IMG/VR virus record: IMGVR_UViG_3300034782_000041 | Location: 1-10,406 of that record | Origin: a virus | Strand: one strand, 5' to 3' | DNA: 10,406 bases | In this document: positions 1 to 10,406 of the stretch, in pieces | Numbering within the stretch: position 1 is the first letter of the stretch | Layout of the letters: every line of letters begins with the position of its first letter | Translations under genes and position numbers: made by a program | The notes under the pieces: generated by a model | The model's input: only the letters and a program-made list of their open reading frames with translations | Told to the model about the DNA's origin: nothing | Database searches by the model: none

Positions 1-12
1 CTATCGCCGACA

Positions 13-297
13 TCATCTCCGCTTTCGACGTACGACGATATCGCTGTCGCCCCACTCAGCGCGTCCCGGAAGGCGTCCCTCATCGTCGAGAAACGCAATC
101 GCTGCACGCGCAGCGTCGTCGTACGCTGCCGGTGAATCAACCGCGCGCGTTAGATGAGCGGGGGGGCCAACCCACATCACCTGGCAGTCACGCTCCGCTC
201 GGTTGGGTGCGATCCGACAAACAGTCGCTTTGTACTGATTGTCCCGATCGACGAACTTGATGTGGATGCTGAGGTTTCCTGACCAACGCCGGGCCAT
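13..297 (-). CDS. Hypothetical protein (94 aa), third gene of a 3-gene minus-strand operon
   Basis: ATG at 297 sits 6 nt downstream of a strong SD (GAGGAGGAGGAG, 304..315 on the minus strand). That SD directly follows the TAA stop (318..320) of the upstream small gene. The longer listed ORF 13..408 needs a TTG start with no SD. Stop is TGA at 13..15. Confidence 0.5.
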   Translation of the reverse strand: MARRWSGNLSIHIKFVDRDNQYKATVCRIAPNRAERDCQVMWVGPPAHLTRAVDSPAAYDDAARAAIAFLDDEGRLPGRAEWGDSDIVVRRKRR

Positions 298-317
298 ACG
301 CTGCTCCTCCTCCTCAG

Positions 318-476
318 TTAGCGCCGACGTCTGCGTCTGCGCGGTTTGGATCCTGACAAGTGCTCTGCCACGCAAGCACGGAACTTCCCTCCAGGGAGGC
401 CTTTGCAAGCTTTGGCGGCCTGCTTCATGTTGTTCTGTGCCTTCTTCTGAGCTGCGGACGATCGCCGTTTTGCCAT
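318..476 (-). CDS. Small highly basic protein (52 aa) with a C-terminal Arg7 tail
   Basis: ATG at 476 is preceded by GAAGGAAGG (SD) with a 9-nt spacer. The SD overlaps the TGA stop (493..495) of the upstream membrane-peptide gene. Sequence MAKRRSSAAQKKAQNN...KPRRRRRRR. Stop TAA at 318..320. Confidence 0.45.
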   Translation of the reverse strand: MAKRRSSAAQKKAQNNMKQAAKACKGLPGGKFRACVAEHLSGSKPRRRRRRR

Positions 477-492
477 GATGGTATACCTTCCT

Positions 493-702
493 TCAGTCAC
501 CAAAGATCGCGTCGGTCAGTTTCCAAACAAAGAGCGCGCCTACGATGAGAGCCGTTCCCACGCCGACGTAGTAAATGGTCTTGCTGACGTCCTTGACCGT
601 GTCTACGCCTGGAATGTCCGACCCGAGCCCACGATCAATGGCCGCCCGACGATACCAGTACGTGGTCGGTTCAGAGGCTCCTACCTGCACCGCAGTAAGC
701 AT
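493..702 (-). CDS. Small membrane protein (69 aa) with one C-terminal TM helix (TIYYVGVGTALIVGALFVWKL)
   Basis: ORF whose stop is coupled to the downstream gene's RBS. There is a clear hydrophobic helix. The SD upstream of ATG 702 is weak. Confidence 0.45.
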   Translation of the reverse strand: MLTAVQVGASEPTTYWYRRAAIDRGLGSDIPGVDTVKDVSKTIYYVGVGTALIVGALFVWKLTDAIFGD

Positions 703-727
703 ACTTGCAACCTATCATTGATTGAGA

Positions 728-1210
728 ATGGGGTCTACTGATAGGCTATTCGTACGCATGAGCTACGTCAAAGATCAACTGGCATTGGCGGCAGCCGAAG
801 GGGAGCCGAAACTTCCTACTTACCGAACTATCGCAGACGTTCTCGAAAAGAAGAACGGATCTGGTATTCGGTTAGCCGGATGGACAGTCGCGCGGACGTT
901 TCTCATCATGCCGGGAATGCTCGCGGTAGGCGTCTCACCTAAGAAGGCGTTTGTCGGATCTATCCTATCGTCCAGCCTGATCAGCATGCTCGCGTTGATT
1001 CGGATCTACAACGCAGGTTTCGCGGAAGATGCCGAACGTTGGGCACGCATGAAGCGCGCGCAGAAGCTCGAACGTTGGGAACGCCGTCAGGCGCCTGCGG
1101 CGTTGGGGAGTGGCTGGGAGAGGCGTCGGCAACGACAAGCAGGCCGCTACGAACAGCATCGCGCGCGGATTCAAGCTCGACACCTACGCAGGCGCCAACA
1201 ACAAAGGTAG
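728..1210 (+). CDS. Membrane protein (2-3 TM segments) with an extremely basic R/Q-rich C-terminal tail; start uncertain (TTG 722, ATG 728 or ATG 758)
   Basis: Hydrophobic segments (FLIMPGMLAVGV; FVGSILSSSLISMLALIRIY). TAG stop at 1208..1210 lies inside the SD of the next gene, indicating coupling. It is divergent from the 493..702 gene. Confidence 0.5.
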   Translation: MGSTDRLFVRMSYVKDQLALAAAEGEPKLPTYRTIADVLEKKNGSGIRLAGWTVARTFLIMPGMLAVGVSPKKAFVGSILSSSLISMLALIRIYNAGFAEDAERWARMKRAQKLERWERRQAPAALGSGWERRRQRQAGRYEQHRARIQARHLRRRQQQR

Positions 1211-1217
1211 GATTGCA

Positions 1218-1502
1218 ATGCCCCGAGGGTTCGGATCTCCACAGCAACTTCACACACGCAAAGCACGTAACGCGTTTCAGGACGCCAACGAGTTTCTGCA
1301 CCGCGCAGCGATGGCGATGATCAAAGGCGATTGCGTTACCGCATTCGACGAACTCAAGCTGGCGGAGAAGTCACGATCTGTCGCTCTCAGTCAGATGCTT
1401 GACTCGGACCTGTCAGCAGCGTCACGGCATCGTTTACAGCAAGGGCTTGACCGCTTTCTGAACGTCGAGAACCGTTTCGTCAAGCGGTGCCTCCGCAAAT
1501 AG
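1218..1502 (+). CDS. Hypothetical protein (94 aa)
   Basis: ATG 1218 is preceded by AAAGGTAGG (SD) with a 6-nt spacer. The listed ORF 1110..1502 shares this frame but would overlap the upstream gene by 100 nt. Stop TAG at 1500..1502. Confidence 0.5.
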   Translation: MPRGFGSPQQLHTRKARNAFQDANEFLHRAAMAMIKGDCVTAFDELKLAEKSRSVALSQMLDSDLSAASRHRLQQGLDRFLNVENRFVKRCLRK

Positions 1503-1506
1503 CACG

Positions 1507-2673
1507 CTAGCGCTGGGTTGGTGACGCAGCAGCGACGACACGTTGTTGTGCAAGCTCAACATACTCAGCGTTCATTTCAACACCTAGAAAGCTTAGCTCC
1601 TCGTATGCGCAAGCTACACCCGTCGTTCCTGAGCCTGTAAACGGGTCGAGCACGACCCCCCCTGGGGGTGTAACCAAACGCGCGAGCCATCGCATCAGCG
1701 CGACAGGTTTGACTGTCGGATGGTTGTTGCTTTGATCGCCGAGTCCAGCATCCCGTTCCTTCTTCGTTGCTTTGGCGCAATAGAAGAAACGTGACACGCC
1801 ACCAACTTGCGTGTCGAGCAGTGCCGCGGACTCTTCATCCAAGACCAGATTTGCCGGCCAGCGACCACCGTCTTTGCCGGCGATTTCAGATCGGTTTGCG
1901 CTTGTCCACCCCGACGCTGACGTTGTCGTCTTGCCGAGTCTACGGACCAATGTCTCGTCTGTAGTAATTCGGCAACCGTCGATGTTGAGTGCGCCTGTAT
2001 GATGCCGAAGAACGTTCTTGGCCACGGTGCCAATCAGAGGTTTACGTATCAATAGGATTGGCTCCCAAGCAGGCTTGAGCGAAGTTCCCCATCCCTCCCA
2101 TTCAGTAGCAGCGCTCGGTTGTTGCTTGGCGACGGCCTTCGCGACATCAAGTGACTTCGGAAAGCCTTGTCCGTAGATCCAGGCAAGGCAGTCTCTGAGT
2201 TCCCAACCTACATCCTCAAGCGCACACGCTAGTCGATGATACGTACGCGTGCCGCCGAACACTACACCGTACGCACCGGGTTTCACAACCCGTAGTACCT
2301 CACGTGCCCACTGTTCGTGCCACGCTTGCATTTGGTTCCAGCGATCATCTGCCTGAGAAAAATCTGGCTCCGCGCAAACGCACGGAGATCCGCCGTGAGA
2401 CAGGTGGCCACACTTGCGGCATCGCAGCTCGTTCCAGCCTCGATTCAACGGCCAGGGCGTTGTACGCTCACCGATACCAGGCTTTGAAGCGCGACCGGCC
2501 CCCGTCGTGTATTCGGGGGCCTTACCACCTAACCGATCCCAATCCTTACCCATGAACTCCAGCCCGTAGGGCGGATCAGTAACCAATGCATCGATGAAAG
2601 GTTGGTTGATCCTACGTAAGACCTCCACACAGTCTCCGTGGATCAGCCGCTGCAATGGCGAGGACATACCCAC
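1507..2673 (-). CDS. DNA methyltransferase, beta-class amino-MTase (N6-adenine or N4-cytosine; Pfam N6_N4_Mtase-like)
   Basis: N-terminal LIHGDCVEVLRRI (motif X-like). DPPY (motif IV) is encoded at 2566..2577. C-terminal VVLDPFTGSGTTGVA (motif I, FxGxG) is at ~1620..1660. The order IV-before-I is the beta-class permutation. Internal VVKPGAYGVVFGG and LLIRKP segments are typical of the family. A Cys cluster C-x2-C-x9-C-x-C (RCRKCGHLSHGGSPCVC) is encoded at ~2374..2421. Start is GTG 2673 or ATG 2667, directly after the stop of the upstream gene. Confidence 0.9.
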   Translation of the reverse strand: MGMSSPLQRLIHGDCVEVLRRINQPFIDALVTDPPYGLEFMGKDWDRLGGKAPEYTTGAGRASKPGIGERTTPWPLNRGWNELRCRKCGHLSHGGSPCVCAEPDFSQADDRWNQMQAWHEQWAREVLRVVKPGAYGVVFGGTRTYHRLACALEDVGWELRDCLAWIYGQGFPKSLDVAKAVAKQQPSAATEWEGWGTSLKPAWEPILLIRKPLIGTVAKNVLRHHTGALNIDGCRITTDETLVRRLGKTTTSASGWTSANRSEIAGKDGGRWPANLVLDEESAALLDTQVGGVSRFFYCAKATKKERDAGLGDQSNNHPTVKPVALMRWLARLVTPPGGVVLDPFTGSGTTGVACAYEELSFLGVEMNAEYVELAQQRVVAAASPTQR

Positions 2674-2958
2674 TCAGATCTGGCCGTTGTGCGTTTTAGC
2701 CCAAAACAGTCGTCTGCACCATGAAGATCTCCAGGCACGCAGCTCGTCGTAGGTGTCGCCCTCATCACTAACTTCTGGATACGGATCGTAACCTAGCTCA
2801 GGCCACTCTCGATCCCACTCATCTAACCGATCCACGAGATCCATGGCAAATAGGCGCAGAAGAGTCGCGTAATCTACCAATGCCTGGCGATCCTCCGCCT
2901 TACTACCTTTCTCAGCCAGCACACGCTCACACAGTGCATCAAATTCACGTGTCCGCAT
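2674..2958 (-). CDS. Small acidic hypothetical protein (94 aa), co-oriented with and immediately upstream of the methyltransferase
   Basis: ATG 2956..2958. TGA stop at 2674..2676 abuts the MTase start (overlapping or a 6-nt gap), implying co-translation. Acidic, Trp-rich sequence with no recognisable motif. Confidence 0.55.
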   Translation of the reverse strand: MRTREFDALCERVLAEKGSKAEDRQALVDYATLLRLFAMDLVDRLDEWDREWPELGYDPYPEVSDEGDTYDELRAWRSSWCRRLFWAKTHNGQI

Positions 2959-3051
2959 GGATTAGGACCCTACCACGCAGAGCTGACAACGCTGTTTGTC
3001 ACACCGTCATGGTACAACCCGCGCATCAACGACTACCAAAGGTGATACACC
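2959..3051. promoter_or_regulatory. Divergent intergenic region (93 bp) containing a near-palindrome TGACAAC-GCT-GTTTGTCA (2984..3001)
   Basis: It lies between the starts of divergent genes (2958 minus, 3052 plus). The inverted repeat is one base away from perfect. -35-like hexamers (CTGACA, TTGTCA) are present. This is an operator/promoter candidate. Confidence 0.4.
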
Positions 3052-3540
3052 ATGGCAACAGCAGTCAGACGAAGAACCCAAGGACAGCCACAGGCGCAGC
3101 CGCAGCCGCAGCCAGCCGCGAAACCAGAATCGACCGGCAAGAAAACGCGCAACGTGCTCACTTGGAAGGAACGTAACCTCAAGCAGGCAACCAGAGCCAT
3201 GCAGTGGCTTGAACGGCTTGACGACGAGCTGGCACGTAGCAGCGTAGAGACAACAGATCCCGGCAGCACGAAGGTCTACCTCCAGGGGATCATCGAGACG
3301 TTGATGTCCACCGCTGACGAGTGGAAACCGGCGCCGAAGACGCGTAGCGCACTCAACGTCGGCGACACAATCACGTTCAAGGATGACACCGCAGTGCAAA
3401 ACTACGGCTTCATCGAAGCGGTTCATGAACGGATAGAGGGTGCTGTCGTGGACAGCGTGTTCGACAAGAACACCGTCATCGTGATGCTGAACGACGGCGA
3501 GAAGACGCTCATTCAGAAGCGTCACCTCCAGCGGTTGTAG
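3052..3540 (+). CDS. Hypothetical protein (162 aa) with an N-terminal basic/PQ-repeat region (QPQAQPQPQP) and a C-terminal small beta-rich domain
   Basis: ATG 3052 is preceded by AAAGGTGAT (SD) with a 5-nt spacer. Protein composition is sensible. The antisense ORF 3007..3576 has R/S/L-rich spurious-looking composition. Confidence 0.6.
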   Translation: MATAVRRRTQGQPQAQPQPQPAAKPESTGKKTRNVLTWKERNLKQATRAMQWLERLDDELARSSVETTDPGSTKVYLQGIIETLMSTADEWKPAPKTRSALNVGDTITFKDDTAVQNYGFIEAVHERIEGAVVDSVFDKNTVIVMLNDGEKTLIQKRHLQRL

Positions 3541-3541
3541 T

Positions 3542-5971
3542 CTAGCTTTCTGGCTGCGGTCGCTCAACCTCCTCAACGTCGATCACGTTCGAGGGCTGTT
3601 GTACCTCGACCTCGACCTCGTCGGTGAGGATCTTCACGCAGTCTACACGATACGGATCAGGCGCTTCGGGAAGGATCACGTCCATGAACTCCGCGAAGCG
3701 TCCCTGCTTGAACAACTCCTCGAAGGCCTGGATCTCGATTCCGTTCGCGCTGACGTAGTTGACGCCCTTCAGGATAGCGTCGATGGCTGCGCTCGGGTCG
3801 AGACCTACGATGTTGCCTTCCTCATCGATCACGCCTTCCTCAGCTAGCTGCGCGATCATTTGAGGATCACCGTTCGCTTCCTGGAAGCGTTCCAGGTTTT
3901 CGAGGAACGTCCGTACGCCAGTCCGTAGCCGCGTTACGGACTCCAAAGCTACGCCGAACCATTCCTCGTCGGTATGGCCTGCACGACGCATTGGGATGAC
4001 CTTCGCAGCCACCGTCTGGCCCGTTTTTGGGTCAGTCACGCCCTCGTCCATGTCGATAGGCGGTTTGGGTGCCGCAGGCTTTCCAGGCCGAGGTCGCGCA
4101 GTCGTTGGTGGCGGCGGCTCAGCACCGCTAAGCCCAGCTGTAGCCGCCGCACCGGGTTGATCTGACTTTCCGTTGCCTTTTCGAGTGGGCCCGGTGTGGC
4201 CGCTGCGCGTAGTGAACTCGGCGTCCTTCTTCGCCTGTGCTTGTTGAGCCGCTGCGGCTGCCGCCGCGGCTTGTGCTTGCATCGCGGCTGCACGAACTTG
4301 CGCTTCGCCCTGCGCCTTCGCGGCAGCAATGCGTGCTTCACTTTGTGCTTGGGCTGCTTTCATTCCGATGTAGCGCTCAGCCATCTCGCCGGCACGGCTC
4401 AGTCCCTGCTCGATGATTCGAGCAGCAGGCGGTTCTGGCGCTCCACCGGTCAGCTGTGCAACCTGTTCGATGGCATTACGCATCGTCCCGAAGATGCCGC
4501 CGAATGTCTCGGTGACGTTCTTCAGCAACATGTCGGTGCCCGAGCTGGAATCGCGGATGATGCCGGCGAGGGCCTGCGGCGTCATCATCATCTGTGCCAT
4601 GCGGTCGCTTGACATCTGCTGCATGCGAGCAATCTCGCGCAGGTTCTCTGCCTGCATGCGCGCCTGTTCCTGCGAGAGCCGCGCATTCTCCTTCATGTAC
4701 TCGACCATCGCATCGGGACGGTTCGCAGTCGCTTCCTTGAGTGCGATCTGCATTCGACCCTCTTGTTCGCGCATCTGCTGTGCAAGCTGTTCTTGCTGTC
4801 GCTGCGACTCCCAGCGTTCCCGTTCGTGTTGCTGCTGAGCTTGCTGGATCCGCGCCTCCTCATGCGCTTTCTGGATCTCCAACTCCAGCGTGCGAAGTCG
4901 GGGATCGTCGGTCGGCTTCTCAGCAATCTTGCCGATCGCCTCTTGCATTACCCGAAATTGCTGCGCGAGCTGATCGCGTTCCCGTTCACGTTCTACGCGC
5001 TGGCGTTCTTCACGTGCGCGACGAACCTCCTCGTTCTCTTTGTCCTTGTTGCCTTCCCCAAGCCGCCGGATTTCGTCTCGCAGCGTCTGCATCTCGCTGG
5101 CATGCTGCTGCTGCGCGCGTTCGAGCGCAGCCTTGTGCTCGATTTCTCGTTGGGCCAGCTCGCGCTGCCTCAGCTCTTCATCTCGACGACGAATCTCCTC
5201 TTGGAAGCGCTGACGCTCTTGCTCACGCTCCTTCTGACGCTCGCGCTCTTCCCGCTCGCGCTCACGCCGCTCATAGTCCCGCTCCCAACGGCGCGACGAT
5301 GAGCCGTTGTTGTCGCCGAAGCCACGCAGCGATGTCGGGTGGTACGGCGCACCGTACGGCGTCCCATACGGCTGAGGGTACGGCGGAGGCCATGCGCCTG
5401 CCGTATTCCAGGGACCCGGTTGTGGCAGCTGAGGGGCCTGCTGAGGGGCCTGCTGTGGCGCTTGTGGGGCCTGCTGCGGTAGTTGGTAGTTCGGGTAGCC
5501 GAACGTTGATGCTGGTGGAGGCCAGTGGGAGTTGCTCATACCAAACGGAACTCCTTGTTGCGAGACCGGTTGCGCAACGGGTGCTTGCTGTGGATTCACG
5601 GGCACACCCGCCGGAAGTGCCTGCGGGCTGAGTTGAGCAGCTGTTGCTTGATTCGGTGGGACCTTCTCAGGATAGGTGCGTGGATCGTAGACGCTCTCCC
5701 ACTTCATTGTCTCGCCGTTGGCATCCGTAACCGAGAAGATGTAGTAGCCGCCACCTGACCACTCGGTGAGGAGCCAGTTTTCCAGCGAGAGCACGTCTTC
5801 GCGCGACCAGTTCGTTCCAGGAGGGGCTCCGTCGCCTTTGCCTGGAATCTCGATGCTCATTGAGGAGGAGCCGCGCTTTTTCTGGACCCGCACGCTGATA
5901 GGTTCTTGCATGCGTTGCAGCTTCGCCTGATCGAATTCGAGGGGAGTCTTGATCCTGGTTGGGGTTGCCAT
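3542..5971 (-). CDS. Large (809 aa) low-complexity multi-domain protein: N-terminal globular domain, P/Q-rich linker, long ER/K-rich charged single-alpha-helix/coiled-coil, poly-Ala helix, G/P linker, C-terminal globular domain with an acidic tail
   Basis: Uninterrupted 2.4-kb ORF. Domains read directly from the translation. The N-terminal domain is aa 1-100, including NWSREDVLSLENWLLTEWSGGGYYIF. QAPQ repeats and PYG repeats span aa 100-215. RERERE/EELRQRE runs span aa 226-460. AQAQAAAAAAAAQQAQA is at aa 540-585. The G/P-rich linker is aa 586-650. The C-terminal domain is aa 660-780. Plus-strand ORFs across this span have typical antisense A/R/P/S composition. The RBS upstream of ATG 5971 is weak. 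Confidence 0.75.
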   Translation of the reverse strand: MATPTRIKTPLEFDQAKLQRMQEPISVRVQKKRGSSSMSIEIPGKGDGAPPGTNWSREDVLSLENWLLTEWSGGGYYIFSVTDANGETMKWESVYDPRTYPEKVPPNQATAAQLSPQALPAGVPVNPQQAPVAQPVSQQGVPFGMSNSHWPPPASTFGYPNYQLPQQAPQAPQQAPQQAPQLPQPGPWNTAGAWPPPYPQPYGTPYGAPYHPTSLRGFGDNNGSSSRRWERDYERREREREERERQKEREQERQRFQEEIRRRDEELRQRELAQREIEHKAALERAQQQHASEMQTLRDEIRRLGEGNKDKENEEVRRAREERQRVERERERDQLAQQFRVMQEAIGKIAEKPTDDPRLRTLELEIQKAHEEARIQQAQQQHERERWESQRQQEQLAQQMREQEGRMQIALKEATANRPDAMVEYMKENARLSQEQARMQAENLREIARMQQMSSDRMAQMMMTPQALAGIIRDSSSGTDMLLKNVTETFGGIFGTMRNAIEQVAQLTGGAPEPPAARIIEQGLSRAGEMAERYIGMKAAQAQSEARIAAAKAQGEAQVRAAAMQAQAAAAAAAAQQAQAKKDAEFTTRSGHTGPTRKGNGKSDQPGAAATAGLSGAEPPPPTTARPRPGKPAAPKPPIDMDEGVTDPKTGQTVAAKVIPMRRAGHTDEEWFGVALESVTRLRTGVRTFLENLERFQEANGDPQMIAQLAEEGVIDEEGNIVGLDPSAAIDAILKGVNYVSANGIEIQAFEELFKQGRFAEFMDVILPEAPDPYRVDCVKILTDEVEVEVQQPSNVIDVEEVERPQPES
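5400..5480. repeat. In-frame tandem ~12-nt repeats (GAGGGGCCTGCT-like) encoding the QAPQ repeats of the 809-aa protein
   Basis: gaggggcctgctgaggggcctgctgtggcgcttgtggggcctgctg is seen directly. Coding low-complexity, on the minus-strand gene. Confidence 0.6.
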
Positions 5972-6096
5972 AGCGTGACGATACGCAGAGTCTTAGTTGT
6001 GTGCAAGAAATTCCCGAGATCGCGTCCGCGATCAAACGCCGAACGGCAACAAATTCGGTTGCTGGGGGTAACCCAGCGTGATACCGATAGTTAACT
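5972..6096. promoter_or_regulatory. Divergent intergenic region (125 bp) with several inverted repeats: GATCGCG-TC-CGCGATC (6018..6033), GCAAC-N7-GTTGC (6046..6062), and a perfect 12-bp palindrome ATAGTTAACTAT (6087..6098) overlapping the ATG of the downstream gene
   Basis: Seen directly in the sequence. It lies between the start of the 809-aa gene (minus) and the start of the 6097 operon (plus). A partial direct repeat AGCGTGA(C)GATAC occurs at 5972..5985 and 6075..6090. Confidence 0.45.
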
Positions 6097-6516
6097 ATGG
6101 CGATTGACAGAATGATTGTTCCGAAGGATCGCGTGTTTGAACGCGGACGTGGTTGTTACAACTGCCGACACTTCGAGAACGGTGAACTCGCGCGCAATCA
6201 TTGGCGTTCCCGTCGGCCGCAAGACGAGATAGCAATCCTCGAACGCACTGGGGGCATCGCCAACCTGGGCACAATCTCACCCAACGATCAACGCTTCCAG
6301 TCACTAAATGACATGGAAAAAGCAGTGATGATGGGGCAGGCCGGAATGTGCATGGTGGGGAAAGTCCAAACAGACTTTGTGCACTTCAAATACCTCTGCG
6401 ACGCCTGGACTGGAAAAGAAGGTGCGTCAGCGGCAACCGAAGGACATCCGCTAGATCCACTACCTGCTGAGCTGAAAGAGATCGCAGAAGCCCGCGCGAA
6501 AAAGCACGAAGACTGA
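6097..6516 (+). CDS. Hypothetical Cys-containing protein (139 aa; GCYNC...CMVGK...C), first gene of a coupled plus-strand operon
   Basis: ORF with sensible composition. Its stop TGA 6514..6516 is followed one base later by the next ATG. No strong SD; the start lies within the AT-rich palindrome. Confidence 0.55.
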   Translation: MAIDRMIVPKDRVFERGRGCYNCRHFENGELARNHWRSRRPQDEIAILERTGGIANLGTISPNDQRFQSLNDMEKAVMMGQAGMCMVGKVQTDFVHFKYLCDAWTGKEGASAATEGHPLDPLPAELKEIAEARAKKHED

Positions 6517-6517
6517 G

Positions 6518-7030
6518 ATGAGTGAGTACACACCCGAGTACGTATTGGCTTCTGCGCTAACGCCGATCCTTTACGGTTTGGTTGCGTCCTCACTCTACTA
6601 TCTCGGCTCCCGAGCCAAGATCACGGAATTTCTCTGGTCACACTATCCACCGGCCTTCGACCGATTCATGATGTGCGCAGCATGTACAGGCTTCTGGTGG
6701 GGTCTTGGCGCAGCATTTGTGATCGGTTGGTGGCACGAGTTGCCATTTTTGTTGTTACCGGGTCGTTACTGGATGACGCCGGTCGTAGTCGCGCTCACTT
6801 CCGTTGTACTCACACCAGTTTTCGGTGCATTACACCTACGTGCACTTGAATATACGAATGCGATGCCCTTGGAGGAGTCCGAATCAACCCCACCAGAGCA
6901 ACCCAAGACGGTCATTAGTCCGTCAGCAGTTCTTCCAGCTGCCGGCAACCATCTTGGACGCCTCGGCGAATCGACCCCACTAGATCAACCCGAGATGGTA
7001 TCGTCGGAACAAGAGGACACTGATGGGTAG
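6518..7030 (+). CDS. Integral membrane protein (170 aa, 3-4 Trp-rich TM helices, acidic Ser/Glu-rich C-terminal tail); possible holin-like protein
   Basis: Hydrophobic segments: VLASALTPILYGLVASSLYYLG, FMMCAACTGFWWGLGAAFVIGWW and WMTPVVVALTSVVLTPVFGAL. Its ATG is coupled to the upstream stop. It overlaps the next gene by 8 nt. Confidence 0.6.
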   Translation: MSEYTPEYVLASALTPILYGLVASSLYYLGSRAKITEFLWSHYPPAFDRFMMCAACTGFWWGLGAAFVIGWWHELPFLLLPGRYWMTPVVVALTSVVLTPVFGALHLRALEYTNAMPLEESESTPPEQPKTVISPSAVLPAAGNHLGRLGESTPLDQPEMVSSEQEDTDG

Positions 7031-7457
7031 ACCACCGAAAAACCCGGACGCGCCATGGTGGCGAACCATCCGTGAGTGCGAGATAAGCATGATCAAGTAT
7101 GCCTTCACACACGCCCGCTCGGTTCGGCAAGCTGCAAAGGGTCTTGGGATATCAAGTCCATACTTGATGAGTAAAGCGAAGCAGTACGGGTGCACGCTTC
7201 CAGGGAAACCAACAACCGAGTCGAGTGAAGGACAAGTGAGCGATCAGGCGCCAAAGAAAACAAGAACACGTAGGAAGACACGTCGCAAGACGCGACGCAA
7301 AACCAATACGCCAAGCGCTTCGATCGACAACGTCGTTCCAATTAGCCGTGTTGACGACGTCGATGGCGAAAACTTCGATGACGACGACTTTGACGGCGAT
7401 AACGACGACTTCGGTGACGACGACTTCGACGACAACACTCCCGATCATGCGTCATGA
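7023..7457 (+). CDS. Fis/NtrC-type helix-turn-helix (HTH_8-like) DNA-binding protein with a (RRKT)3 basic repeat and a poly-Asp/Phe acidic C-terminal tail
   Basis: aa 15-56, IRECEISMIKYAFTHARSVRQAAKGLGISSPYLMSKAKQYG, matches the Fis-family pattern (xxALxxxxGNxSxAAxxLGISRxTLYRKLKKYG). KKTRTRRKTRRKTRRKT is encoded at 7254..7301. DDVDGENFDDDDFDGDNDDFGDDDFDD is encoded at 7353..7433. ATG 7023 overlaps the upstream gene; the stop overlaps the next start (ATGA at 7454). Confidence 0.65.
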   Translation: MGRPPKNPDAPWWRTIRECEISMIKYAFTHARSVRQAAKGLGISSPYLMSKAKQYGCTLPGKPTTESSEGQVSDQAPKKTRTRRKTRRKTRRKTNTPSASIDNVVPISRVDDVDGENFDDDDFDGDNDDFGDDDFDDNTPDHAS

Positions 7458-7807
7458 ATACGTCTACGACTCTGCGTACACCAGCGGTGGGAGTCGTACC
7501 CCCAGGGGGCACCGTTACGGTGACAATCGAGAAAGTCATCACGGCACGAGAAGTTCCCATTGTGCTGACAGCACAACCGCAAACCCTCACGATTCGCGCA
7601 GTGTATCCACACAGCGTCGAAATTGCTAACCTGTCAGCCGCGCCAGTTCCCTACGTCCTACTCATCATCCCCAACGTAGCGCTCAAACTCGTTTCTGTGC
7701 CATGGACACGTGTAGCAGAAGCGCTCAGCTCGCCGGCAGGCCGTTCTGCAATCTTGGAAAAGCTTACACAGCTCTTCTTGGGTGCCGGTCGCCAGCTCGA
7801 CAAATAA
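7454..7807 (+). CDS. Hypothetical T/V-rich (beta-rich) protein (117 aa)
   Basis: ATGA start/stop overlap with the upstream gene. Stop TAA 7805..7807 is followed one base later by the next ATG. The alternative-frame ORF 7348..7629 is a low-complexity artefact. Confidence 0.5.
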   Translation: MNTSTTLRTPAVGVVPPGGTVTVTIEKVITAREVPIVLTAQPQTLTIRAVYPHSVEIANLSAAPVPYVLLIIPNVALKLVSVPWTRVAEALSSPAGRSAILEKLTQLFLGAGRQLDK

Positions 7808-7808
7808 C

Positions 7809-8000
7809 ATGCAAAGGTGCTGTTTCTGCAATAGGTGGTTCAAGTCGCGTCAGGCCGTTCGTGGACATCTTCGCACTTGTGAAGATTACAAGGCGTCGAA
7901 AGCTACCTATGTCTGTCCGGTATGCTCGACCTGCGTGTTGCAAGAAGATCTCCCTGTAGCATGCCCGACCTGCGCTACGATGTTACCTGTCGAACAGTGA
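7809..8000 (+). CDS. Small two-zinc-finger protein (63 aa): classical C2HC finger (C-x2-C-x3-F-x5-V-x2-H-x3-C) plus a CPxC...CPxC zinc ribbon; candidate transcription factor
   Basis: MQRCCFCNRWFKSRQAVRGHLRTC has canonical C2H2-type spacing. YVCPVCSTC...ACPTC is a Cys4 ribbon. ATG 7809 comes right after the upstream stop. The listed ORF start 7782 is a GTG inside the upstream gene with no SD. Confidence 0.55.
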   Translation: MQRCCFCNRWFKSRQAVRGHLRTCEDYKASKATYVCPVCSTCVLQEDLPVACPTCATMLPVEQ

Positions 8001-8070
8001 CTAGCCTTCTGTGAAGCAGTTTGCAATGTCAAAACAAAACCGGTGGAGAGACTGAAGGGTCACTTACTGC

Positions 8071-8907
8071 ATGACACCTAAACAAGTGCAGAAAGCTGCT
8101 GCGTTCAACGCCAGAGAGGCTAAGCAAGGCGACTACACGCAAAAGCATCAAGTACGGCTCATCGAGTTCTGGCAAGAGCATCACGGGCTGCTGGCCGACG
8201 GATGGTGCGGTGCGTTTACGCAAAAGTCGATTGATGGCAGTATTGCAGTAGACTGGAATCAAGACGTGCATGACATCTTGGCCAACGAGGACCAGTACGT
8301 TGACGGGTTGTGGCTTCCCTGGGATGGACCAGAGAAATCCCAGCCGAGAAACTACAAAGAGGCCATCGAGTTCTTTGGTAGGCCTGAGACACACAAAGGA
8401 TCGGATGTTCTCGACAGAGCTTGGTACAAAGCCAACATCGTTGAGTGTCACAAGAAGCTAGGCAATCAGCTTCCAGGTGTGCCAGAGCGGTGGTGGGTGA
8501 AAACGTACCGTCGATGCGAGCCCTACCTACGTGAAGGTCTACGCCGTGCTTCGCTTACATCTCCCTACCGCATTCAACGCTGTGGCGGATTCGTCTTTCG
8601 CCACATCCGCAACGACCCGGACAAAGACCTGTCCATGCACGCGTTCGGTGCTGCAATCGACTTCGATCCTGATTGGAACTACGCATACCAATACAAGCGC
8701 GGCGCCGACGTGCCCAAGGCCTGGTCACCTCAGTGGCTGAGAAAGTGGCCGAAGGGCATCGATGAAAAGTTCGTGCAAGCTATGGCTAGCTGCGGTTGGG
8801 CGTGGGGCTCGGACTGGGATGAGGACGGCCGCACTGACGACCATTTGTGGCAAGACCCGATGCACATGGAATGGATCGCCCGAGACGGCCGCAGTCGTAT
8901 GGTGTAG
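8071..8907 (+). CDS. Endolysin: N-terminal peptidoglycan-binding (PG_binding_1-like) domain plus C-terminal peptidase M15 (VanY / L-Ala-D-Glu peptidase-type zinc peptidase)
   Basis: aa 27-58 VRLIEFWQEHHGLLADGWCGAFTQKSI fits the PG_binding_1 pattern. SMHAFGAAIDFDPD (H190-x6-D197) and DPMHME (H265) form the M15 H-x6-D...H zinc triad. SD-like GAAGGG lies 12 nt upstream of ATG 8071. Confidence 0.85.
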   Translation: MTPKQVQKAAAFNAREAKQGDYTQKHQVRLIEFWQEHHGLLADGWCGAFTQKSIDGSIAVDWNQDVHDILANEDQYVDGLWLPWDGPEKSQPRNYKEAIEFFGRPETHKGSDVLDRAWYKANIVECHKKLGNQLPGVPERWWVKTYRRCEPYLREGLRRASLTSPYRIQRCGGFVFRHIRNDPDKDLSMHAFGAAIDFDPDWNYAYQYKRGADVPKAWSPQWLRKWPKGIDEKFVQAMASCGWAWGSDWDEDGRTDDHLWQDPMHMEWIARDGRSRMV

Positions 8908-8910
8908 TAC

Positions 8911-8937
8911 CTCTACTGTCACACCTATTTAGTAGAG
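8911..8937. promoter_or_regulatory. Inverted repeat CTCTACT-N13-AGTAGAG immediately downstream of the endolysin stop
   Basis: 7-bp arms with a 13-nt loop or spacer. No following T-run, so it is not a canonical intrinsic terminator. Possible operator or weak attenuator. Confidence 0.3.
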
Positions 8938-9016
8938 TCGCTGGATGCCGAAAAGGCCATCTAGCGACCGTGTTGTCCCTGTTCTACCAACGGCACCTAC
9001 CTGGAAGGGCGCAGGC

Positions 9017-9310
9017 ATGGTAGATGCCACCCCAGAAGCCGTGTTTCCCCGAGATCTGCGCATAACGGCCGAGCGCATCATCGATCTCTGCGACCCGATT
9101 TTCGCTGAGAACTCGACCATCGCCGAGGTAGACAAAGCCGTCGATGACATCATTGACGTACTAGCTGAGGCCGTCACACACGAAACCGAGGAGCTGCGTG
9201 ACGCGCTCTATGAGATGTTGCAGAGCCACCGCTACCGGTTTCCTCTCAACGGAAAGTGCCACTGCGCGGCGTGCAGACACGCAGCACTTTTGGTTGAGGG
9301 CGACAACTAG
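9017..9310 (+). CDS. Hypothetical acidic protein (97 aa; alternative start ATG 8945 gives 121 aa) with a C-terminal CHCAACRH motif
   Basis: ATG 9017 is preceded by GGAAGGG with a 7-nt spacer. ATG 8945 has no SD. Stop TAG 9308..9310 is followed 2 nt later by the next ATG. Confidence 0.5.
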   Translation: MVDATPEAVFPRDLRITAERIIDLCDPIFAENSTIAEVDKAVDDIIDVLAEAVTHETEELRDALYEMLQSHRYRFPLNGKCHCAACRHAALLVEGDN

Positions 9311-9312
9311 AG

Positions 9313-9879
9313 ATGTCACACCTTTTCAACATCGTTGAGAATACGATACGTCAAATGATCGTTCCGGTAGGGACACGCATCGAGGTCCCGTCACATGACG
9401 ACGACCCACAAGGGCATCAATGGATTCTCATGGGTATCGCGGTCGTACCGCACCCGAGCTACACGTCGCCGGGCACTGATCGCGACATGCGTACCTTCGG
9501 TGATGTATGCGTCTACTTCGACGACGAGCGAATCCTACACCGACTGAACGCGTATACGTTGATGGATCGTTATTGGGGTAGGTACAACTTGAGTCCCGAG
9601 CTACCCGATCTGACTGCAAAGCTAGAGATGATGCAGCACGCGGCACGGTCGGCACCTAGACTTCTCGACCTCGCACAGGCGATCGAAGCAGCCCGCGACG
9701 CACTAATCTACTACCAACAGGCGGTGACGCCCCTATTTGACAAACCCATCACTGTGCCTGCTGGGCGAACGTTTCGGGTCGTTCAACTGCCGTGCAAAGA
9801 CGATTCCCCTTTCCGTTACAGCAACATTGACGTGGAGCTATTCGTCATTGTCCGACGTCCAGTCAAGCAGCCGGATTGA
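9313..9879 (+). CDS. Hypothetical protein (188 aa)
   Basis: ORF coupled to the upstream stop. Globular-looking composition with no recognisable motif. Confidence 0.55.
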   Translation: MSHLFNIVENTIRQMIVPVGTRIEVPSHDDDPQGHQWILMGIAVVPHPSYTSPGTDRDMRTFGDVCVYFDDERILHRLNAYTLMDRYWGRYNLSPELPDLTAKLEMMQHAARSAPRLLDLAQAIEAARDALIYYQQAVTPLFDKPITVPAGRTFRVVQLPCKDDSPFRYSNIDVELFVIVRRPVKQPD

Positions 9880-9934
9880 CCGTCACGGACAGTTGATCAT
9901 CGCACTCACGCGCTTCTGCGGGTTGCAGAACACG

Positions 9935-10129
9935 ATGATCAGCCTTATAGCAAGTCAGCTGAAACAGCTCAGCAACACGGCACCGCCTGGCGTCGGCAAC
10001 GTCGCATTGGCGCTTGCGGCTGCACAGCGCGACTTGCTGGCATTGATCGCCGAGGAATACGAGGATCTTCCCGCGGAGGCGAAAGCAGCTGCTGTGGACA
10101 TACTAGGAGGAAAAGCGTGGCCGAGATAA
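9935..10129 (+). CDS. Small helical hypothetical protein (64 aa; start uncertain, possibly TTG 9893 or 9923)
   Basis: This frame runs through to TAA 10127..10129, which overlaps the next gene's start region. The upstream part of the listed ORF 9737..10129 overlaps gene 9313..9879 and is rejected. No clear SD. Confidence 0.35.
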   Translation: MISLIASQLKQLSNTAPPGVGNVALALAAAQRDLLALIAEEYEDLPAEAKAAAVDILGGKAWPR

Positions 10130-10406
10130 CGATGAGCCTACCCGAGTACCAAGAGTTGACCTCACAGCGGGATGACGCACGCCGCGAAGCGGCTGAGCTA
10201 CGCGACCAGCTCCGTAAGGCCGAGATGCGTGACCCCGAGGGCCGCATTCCTAATCTCGTGCTAGGCATGGAAGCGGCACTCTCGGTGATCAAGTTCGCCG
10301 TCGGGAACCTAGCCCCCGAGACGGTTCGTGGTTGGCCTTACCCAGACTTGCTCACTTTCGTGGACGCGCTTGAGAAGCTACCCGGCGTAGGTACCGAAAC
10401 CAAAGA
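10117..10406 (+). CDS. Hypothetical protein, 5' partial in window (at least 96 aa), GTG start
   Basis: AGGAGG (10105..10110) sits 6 nt upstream of GTG 10117. The frame stays open to the window end (…MSLPEYQELTSQRDDARREAAELRDQLRKAEMRDPEGR…). It overlaps the upstream gene's stop by 13 nt. It is absent from the ORF track because no stop falls within the window. Confidence 0.5.
   Translation, partial: MAEITMSLPEYQELTSQRDDARREAAELRDQLRKAEMRDPEGRIPNLVLGMEAALSVIKFAVGNLAPETVRGWPYPDLLTFVDALEKLPGVGTETK

Follow-up and report, generated by a model that had tools for sequence, protein, structure and literature searches.

Three described systems come closest in layout to gene C, a gene on the virus record IMGVR_UViG_3300034782_000041 of IMG/VR, of which positions 1 to 10,406 were analyzed (10,406 nucleotides [nt], called the window below). 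In delta, a subunit of RNA polymerase (RNAP) from Bacillus subtilis, a folded domain is followed by a Lys tract (96-KAKKKKAKK-104) and a tail with a net charge of −47 (PMC7749165, PMC9674986); the Lys tract contacts acidic residues and this contact is required for function (PMC9674986, PMC7749165). Gp44 of phage SPO1 anchors on DNA and binds the β/β′ subunits of RNAP, and its acidic 'DNA mimic' region consists for 57% of Asp and Glu (D/E) (PMC8208478). In HMGB1 and HMGA2, the D/E run folds back electrostatically, autoinhibits binding and can speed up target search among decoys (PMC10250230, PMC11773362).

Gene C resembles delta, Gp44, and HMGB1 in layout and belongs to none of those families. 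With delta (RpoE; B. subtilis and other Firmicutes), it shares a small helical N-terminal domain, a tract of Lys and Arg (K/R), and a long polyanionic disordered tail. However, the tail of gene C is much shorter (net −18 vs. −47) and rich in Asp and Phe, while delta is a host RNAP subunit that is not known for sequence-specific DNA binding. No HARE-HTH or delta match was obtained for gene C in Pfam or NCBIfam, the best folds being Fis/NtrC. Similarly to Gp44, gene C encodes a phage protein with an N-terminal DNA-binding domain of ∼55 residues followed by an acidic disordered region, whereas Gp44 has an Xis-like domain, neither a basic tract nor an NVV motif, and an extra C-terminal region of ∼115 residues. 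Membership of the Gp44 family was rejected following tblastn, which gave no match in 50,697 phage records, and on account of the fold, which is Fis-type and not Xis-like; an excisionase was considered and rejected as well. In HMGB1 and HMGA2, as in gene C, a D/E run at the C-terminus is joined to a basic part that binds DNA, but these are eukaryotic proteins that use an HMG box or AT-hooks and have no homology to gene C.

Coding sequence and protein layout

Gene C is the third gene of a four-gene module, A-B-C-D, and was delimited as follows.

7023-7457, plus strand: gene C, open reading frame (ORF) including the stop codon; helix-turn-helix (HTH) domain, basic tract, NVV motif, and Asp/Phe tail
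7011-7017, plus strand: Shine-Dalgarno-like AAGAGGA, read from the sequence, 5 nt 5′ of the gene C ATG and within the 3′ end of gene B

The product of 144 amino acids (aa) (MGRPPKNPDAPWWRTIRECEISMIKYAFTHARSVRQAAKGLGISSPYLMSKAKQYGCTLPGKPTTESSEGQVSDQAPKKTRTRRKTRRKTRRKTNTPSASIDNVVPISRVDDVDGENFDDDDFDGDNDDFGDDDFDDNTPDHAS) comprises a three-helix domain predicted with confidence (residues 1-60), the basic tract (78-94), NVV (103-105), and the Asp/Phe tail (111-141). The HTH carries a net charge of approximately +7, the densest 20-residue stretch of the linker +12, and the tail −18, which leaves −1 for the whole protein. Exactly the same protein is encoded on three metagenome contigs from three sequencing runs, with a coding sequence that is 100% identical in all three and contig DNA that is 99.99-100% identical to the window. 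The tail is therefore neither an assembly artefact nor a length-polymorphic stretch.

The ATG of gene C at 7023 is located 8 nt within the upstream gene B (stop codon at 7028-7030), and its TGA shares bases with the ATG of gene D as ATGA (7454-7457). Both the overlap with the two neighbors and the tight operon coupling proposed in a sequence-only reading of this DNA were confirmed: gene C is translationally coupled to either neighbor, and the arrangement is kept in ∼40 loci.

N-terminal DNA-binding domain

7023-7199, plus strand: basic arm GRPPKNPDAPWW followed by the Fis/NtrC-type domain, residues 1-59 (AlphaFold2, Foldseek, family profile, HTH_8, and hhalign)

In the AlphaFold2 model, helices are formed by residues 11-30, 34-41, and 45-55, with a predicted local distance difference test (pLDDT) score of 82-97 over residues 1-59 and above 90 for residues 11-60. 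All residues past 60 are predicted to be disordered, with a pLDDT of 50-65 in the tail. The best matches of the model in the Protein Data Bank (PDB) using Foldseek were 2m8g (an NtrC-family DNA-binding domain), many Fis chains, and TyrR (1g2h), with probabilities of 0.97-1.0, template modeling scores (target) of 0.5-0.75, and E-values of only 0.1-1 given the short domain. A fold search of BFVD with gene C returned generic small HTH proteins only.

The domain had been described from the sequence as a canonical HTH_8, to be verified by HMMER against PF02954. This wording proved too strong for the protein itself, which did not match HTH_8 at E ≤ 1; its sole Pfam match was HTH_50 (E = 1.1e-4, 22.2 bits, curated cut-off 27), and the isolated domain, at 24.8 bits, was still under this cut-off. 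The underlying assignment was upheld at the level of the family and the fold. In the set of relatives, HTH_8 matched 13 of 14 N-terminal domains at E ≤ 0.1 (best 6.2e-7) and HTH_50 matched 11 of 14. Using hmmsearch, the family profile retrieved 2m8g (E = 0.0025), 1ntc (NtrC; 0.015), and 1g2h (TyrR; 0.054) from the PDB, as well as NifA, FleQ, ZraR, and Fis chains at weaker scores, and hhalign of the family against Escherichia coli Fis yielded an E-value of 6.7e-5 and a probability of 64%, covering only Fis residues 47-97. Within the Fis/NtrC HTH superfamily, gene C represents a divergent and stand-alone form.

As in the Fis/NtrC domains (HTH_8, PF02954; HTH_50, PF18024; structures 2m8g, 1ntc, 1g2h, and Fis 1fia/3iv5), a long helix precedes the helix-turn-helix, and the conserved Ala-Ala-x-x-Leu-Gly and basic recognition-helix positions align with the gene C family. 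Unlike in these domains, the gene C domain is N-terminal and stand-alone and carries a conserved arm of its own (PKRRxxxAPYW), and the Fis/NtrC families are without the long charged disordered C-terminal region of gene C. Four related assignments were rejected. Fis proper (∼98 aa) has a β-hairpin and helix A that gene C lacks, only a 10-residue arm preceding its first helix. For an NtrC-family enhancer-binding protein, no AAA+ sigma-54 match was obtained in Pfam, and the HTH is located at the extreme N-terminus of 144 aa. A GcrA-like regulator was indicated only by a poor BFVD match (E = 0.046, root-mean-square deviation 25.7 over disordered parts), with no GcrA match in Pfam. A small terminase subunit was discarded as residues past 60 are disordered and no terminase match was found among the neighbors in the window or in related loci.

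Basic tract, NVV motif, and acidic tail

7254-7304, plus strand: basic tract KKTRTRRKTRRKTRRKT, residues 78-94, 12 of 17 residues K/R, including TRRK ×3 (nt 7266-7301)
7326-7343, plus strand: hydrophobic motif DNVVPI, residues 102-107, between the basic and acidic segments (alignment of relatives)
7353-7445, plus strand: acidic Asp/Phe tail, residues 111-141 (composition; predicted disordered)

The repeat that had been noted as (RRKT)3 is exact at residues 83-94, which is equivalent to TRRK ×3 at residues 82-93. Its DNA units, ACACGTAGGAAG, ACACGTCGCAAG, and ACGCGACGCAAA, vary at five positions and every difference is synonymous, pointing to selection on the peptide rather than to fresh duplication. 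An equivalent position is held by K/R/P-rich linkers in most relatives of gene C. Following the basic tract, N103-V104-V105 is invariant in the subgroup to which the window belongs; its counterpart in the main clade of the family is 'LRVV'.

The tail consists of 17 Asp, 1 Glu, 4 Phe, 3 Gly, 3 Asn, and further residues, without any Lys or Arg. Its DDF periodicity, reported from the sequence, is real (Phe at 118, 123, 130, and 135), while its description as nearly all Asp was overstated, 58% of the residues being acidic (18/31 D/E). At the DNA level, a degenerate 12-nt unit, GACGACGACTTC, repeated 4.5 times, was found beneath the tail by TRF, and degenerate 15-nt tandem units are present as well.

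Gene C family and distribution of acidic tails

Relatives were found by an exhaustive phmmer search with residues 1-75 among 1.84 billion representatives, resulting in 13 genuine homologues. The diversity of the family alignment precluded pattern scanning; with the neighboring gene B as bait instead, ∼25 more members were recovered. A word-indexed homology search with the full gene C protein gave no relatives, and IMG/VR scans using gene C, P0001, and P0015 as queries gave no match. In the GenBank phage collection, no DNA or protein match was found for the window, gene C, gene B, or the endolysin-like gene, and the family consensus matched only NtrC genes in contaminated records. PHROGs, NCBIfam, and PADLOC yielded nothing meaningful for genes A, B, C, and D, and no description of the gene C family was found in the literature searched. 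The family is unannotated and has been seen in uncultivated phages only.

A search for homologues with an acidic tail, suggested in the sequence-only reading, was successful. Strongly acidic C-terminal segments of 19-79 residues, with 67-93% D/E and almost no K/R, were present in 18 of ∼39 distinct members, always after a basic or Pro-Gly-Lys linker and an [LN][RN]VV motif. Among the relatives that were scored, 16 carry an acidic tail of 26-79 residues (67-93% D/E). All complete members of the main clade (HTH 'MPKRRDEQAPYWQQLR…') show one order, namely the HTH, a Pro-Gly-Lys/Arg linker, LRVV, and an acidic tail. Members of the window's subgroup have the HTH, a K/R-rich tract, an invariant NVV, and then a tail of varying strength: the window and L010 have a strong tail, P0003 and P0012 a weak one, and L004, L062, and L063 none. 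The latter three are the closest relatives of the window as judged by the A, B, and D proteins, and have kept the rest of the gene and the module. Short mixed tails were found in a remote subfamily and in some members of 80-91 aa, and several members of 80-91 aa are tail-less.

The concern that the tail might be poorly conserved or missing in homologues was thus borne out for the nearest relatives but not for the family, in which recurrence of the layout in nearly half of the distinct members argues against a one-off low-complexity accident. What is conserved in the tail is the architecture and not the sequence; it is a recurrent, compositionally constrained, and dispensable accessory, of which the Asp-only, Phe-rich form is a variant of the window's own lineage. 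Aromatic residues are interspersed with the acidic ones in 8 of the 18 acidic tails (window, L005, L006, L008, L017, L022, L058, and P0007). Tail net charge in most relatives ranges from −26 to ∼−60; it shows no proportionality to the charge of the basic part, which it usually exceeds many-fold. Gene C also diverges faster than its neighbors, with an HTH identity between the window and L004 of 53% vs. 73-81% for A, B, and D.

The gene C proteins of L006, L007, L012, L015-L019, L022, L023, L049, and L051 end in …(Q/T)GN or …N after the acidic tail. This conserved end may represent a functional terminal motif or a nucleotide constraint imposed by the ribosome-binding site of gene D.

Candidate operator

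6018-6033, palindromic (no strand assigned): palindrome GATCGCGTCCGCGATC (GATCGC-N4-GCGATC), candidate operator, in the divergent intergenic region, 64 nt 5′ of the gene A start

This palindrome is unique in the window, where 0.07 copies are expected when allowing up to one mismatch; copies with two mismatches occur at chance level only, and the 2959-3051 intergenic region contains no copy. A second exact copy in the same phage is located on L001 (5896-5911), ∼87 nt past the right end of the window, where it overlaps the stop codon of one gene, 56 nt 5′ of the next operon (361-aa gene). Among related loci, 12 have the same palindrome 80-200 nt 5′ of gene A; in eight it directly follows gene D, often in two copies, and in four it is located at the far end of the divergent ∼800-aa gene. 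In total, 36 copies were counted in 326 kb against 0.27-0.86 expected, representing a ∼40- to 130-fold over-representation. Of the 17 loci having a close-clade gene C, 12 carry the palindrome 5′ of gene A, vs. 1 of 23 others; these counts are not phylogenetically independent. The centers of its half-sites are 10 bp apart, a spacing that is consistent with, but no proof of, binding by a dimeric HTH.

GATC itself occurs at 80 sites in the 10.4 kb of the window, approximately twice the expected number, and at similar levels in L001, L004-L006, and L008. A cyanobacterial HIP1 origin of the GATC-rich motif was rejected, as GCGATCGC is absent from the window, L001, L004, L005, L006, and L008.

Phage element and neighboring genes

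The assignment of the element to a phage was borne out by viral genes in the window and by the related IMG/VR viral contigs. The window encodes a DNA methyltransferase (phrog_67; N6/N4 type; 1507-2673, minus strand) and an M15-type peptidase, and an AP2-HNH endonuclease is encoded just past its right end, on L001. Related loci are IMG/VR viral contigs of 70-221 kb, originating from phages of soil, groundwater, and sediment; no cultured phage related to the window was found in the GenBank phage collection. Pfam analysis of the flanking genes in a 196-kb relative gave a VWA domain only, which was uninformative, and Rfam gave no match in the window. The genes surrounding gene C are the following.

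6097-6516, plus strand: gene A, 139 aa, four invariant Cys, no known family (homologue comparison)
6518-7030, plus strand: gene B, membrane protein in which a CAAC(S/T)GF motif is invariant (homologue alignment), its 3′ end overlapping gene C by 8 nt
7454-7807, plus strand: gene D, 117 aa, β-rich, its start overlapping the gene C stop (ATGA)
3542-5971, minus strand: 809-aa low-complexity/coiled-coil protein, divergent, conserved beside the module (ORF and related loci)

Gene C is located directly 3′ of gene B in the window and in L004-L009. Using gene B as bait, 52 further loci were obtained; gene A is present in almost all of these, gene C directly follows gene B in 32, and gene D comes next in most. 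In a few loci, gene B is directly followed by gene D or by an unrelated coiled-coil gene, indicating that gene C is a lineage-specific part of the module. Genes A, B, and D have no known family in Pfam, PHROGs, NCBIfam, or PADLOC, and the database names of the module proteins are all 'hypothetical'.

For gene A, at least 193 homologues were found, all named 'hypothetical', and its AlphaFold2 model (pLDDT 74) had no structural neighbor in the PDB. In L004 (685-2085), the gene A homologue is split by an intein (Intein_splicing, 8e-13) that contains a homing endonuclease of the LAGLIDADG type (LAGLIDADG_3, 5e-19). Inteins usually reside in essential, highly conserved proteins, and gene A is therefore probably important despite having no known family or fold. 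An element 'GCCACTCTAAGGGTGCGATAC…GTTGTCAACGCG' is conserved 5′ of gene A in related loci and is possibly a non-canonical promoter. Between A and B, a peptide deformylase gene was found in L004 (2089-2709), L062 (4412-5032), and L063 (4492-5091); these same lineages have a tail-less gene C. Gene B of the window carries an acidic Pro/Ser-rich C-terminal extension of ∼45 residues (residues ∼120-170) that is absent from all aligned homologues. The 809-aa protein contains P/Q-rich and E/R/Q coiled-coil regions and has no family match; one of its homologues weakly matches the Microvirus pilot protein H (7.8e-4).

Between gene D and the peptidase gene, a Cys-rich ORF of 72 aa with a zinc-ribbon/C2H2-like pattern is present (7782-8000, plus strand). 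It is kept in L004 (60% identity over 35 aa) and might be a further candidate for DNA binding at the palindrome.

Function of gene C and its tail

Our tentative preference, with a little below an even chance, is that gene C encodes an operator-binding phage regulator of which the acidic tail masks basic surfaces of the protein itself or interacts with a partner that is basic. The N-terminal ∼60 residues would form a Fis/NtrC-type HTH, most likely dimeric like its relatives, that would recognize GATCGC-N4-GCGATC palindromes in the promoter regions flanking the A-B-C-D module, and the K/R-rich tract (TRRK ×3) would add non-specific contacts to the backbone or the minor groove. The Asp/Phe tail may then act as a tethered DNA mimic with two states. 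Off DNA, it would fold over the basic tract and the HTH by electrostatic attraction, resulting in less non-specific binding and a sharper target search. On the operator, it would be displaced and become free for the basic surface of a partner, for which RNAP is the most plausible candidate. With its net charge of −1, the protein of the window is nearly charge-balanced, which fits self-masking.

Several observations weigh against this reading. In most relatives, tail charge exceeds that of the basic parts and does not track it, so that a target in trans fits better than pure self-masking; this speaks against simple self-masking as a complete explanation and keeps RNAP or a host DNA-binding protein seriously in play as a trans target. 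Since the nearest relatives are without a tail, the tail is not needed for the core function. Regarding the operator, L028 has the palindrome 5′ of gene A but no gene C beside gene B, the acidic-tailed loci L005, L008, and L058 have no palindrome, and the association between palindrome and gene C is confounded by shared ancestry. Given the general enrichment of GATC and the presence of a phage methyltransferase, the palindrome could serve another protein. Finally, a scan of window positions 5800-8200 for the sigma-70-type promoter consensus found 0 matches, with 1.1 expected.

The two GATC sites in the candidate operator, together with the phage methyltransferase, make methylation-sensitive regulation at this site conceivable. 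A more ambitious form of the operator-binding reading takes gene C as the first representative of a family of phage HTH regulators that are sequence-specific and have a tethered nucleic-acid-mimicking polyanion and an embedded [LN][RN]VV motif, delivering its tail to RNAP or to a host DNA-binding protein at GATCGC-N4-GCGATC operators, possibly depending on GATC methylation. As a whole, this proposal is unlikely to be correct in all its parts.

The charge of the tails also bears on a host-takeover factor similar to delta or Gp44, in which the HTH and basic tract would anchor the protein largely non-specifically while the tail enters the nucleic-acid channels of the host RNAP, inhibiting or redirecting transcription. 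Not only is the domain order the same as in delta and Gp44, but the tails of most relatives reach charges comparable to that of delta and far beyond the need for self-neutralization, and the aromatic residues within the acid runs of eight family tails suggest a protein-binding surface. We nevertheless consider such a factor doubtful: kinship to delta or Gp44 is absent in sequence and fold, gene C is located in a conserved operon beside a lysis-type gene with no obvious early takeover cluster, tail-less orthologues persist in the same module, and the tail in the window itself is short and carries a net charge of only −18.

That the tail is functionally neutral low-complexity sequence arising from slippage during replication, with importance limited to the HTH and possibly the basic linker, is improbable. 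The degenerate 12-nt and 15-nt tandem units beneath the tail, its hypervariable length and sequence, and the tail-less state of the nearest relatives and of several 80-91-aa members would be expected from slippage. On the other hand, the same layout, order, and near-absence of K/R are kept down to ∼35% HTH identity and are universal in the main clade, and three independent samples gave an identical sequence. With order and composition conserved in this way, pure slippage junk is unlikely.

Hardly more probable, and if anything slightly less so, is a decoy function, in which the tail mimics DNA and sequesters nucleoid proteins (H-NS, Lsr2, HU, or Fis-like) or DNA-targeting defense nucleases, while the HTH concentrates it on phage DNA. 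The composition of the tail is DNA-mimic-like, and both the faster evolution of gene C relative to its neighbors and the gain and loss of tails between close relatives are as anticipated for arms-race genes. However, phage DNA mimics such as Ocr, ArdA, and Arn are folded proteins and not disordered tails, no PADLOC or anti-defense family match was obtained, and no defense or anti-defense genes were recognized nearby.

A tail resembling the C-terminus of single-stranded DNA-binding protein (SSB) or of T7 gp2.5, recruiting replication or recombination proteins to an HTH-bound site such as that of an origin-binding protein, is very improbable, for although the window tail, NFDDDDFDGDNDDFGDDDFDD, resembles the DFDDDIPF-type acidic/aromatic tail and L009 has YqaJ/RecT genes close to the module, gene C has no terminal Phe-COOH, the defining feature of such tails (it ends in …FDDNTPDHAS without a terminal aromatic residue, and most family tails end in …QGN or …N), many family tails have no aromatic residues at all, and no replication genes are adjacent in the window.

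Significance

Among eukaryotic chromatin proteins, D/E-repeat tails by which a DNA-binding domain is autoinhibited or nucleic acid is mimicked have been well studied, while bacterial cases are known from very few proteins, for example, RNAP delta and SPO1 Gp44. Here the same design, which is unusual in a virus of prokaryotes, is seen in an unannotated phage HTH family, conserved across many uncultivated phages that are often of large size (70-220 kb). Orthologues with and without a tail occur naturally and, in combination with a candidate operator, provide a compact and testable system for the role of a tethered polyanion in a prokaryotic DNA-binding protein. They also open a first way to the function of a conserved phage module of four genes, the other members of which are without known relatives. 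If the acidic tail is indeed delivered at operators, the gene C family would represent a bacterial-virus counterpart of the eukaryotic transcription factor built from a DNA-binding domain plus an acidic effector region.

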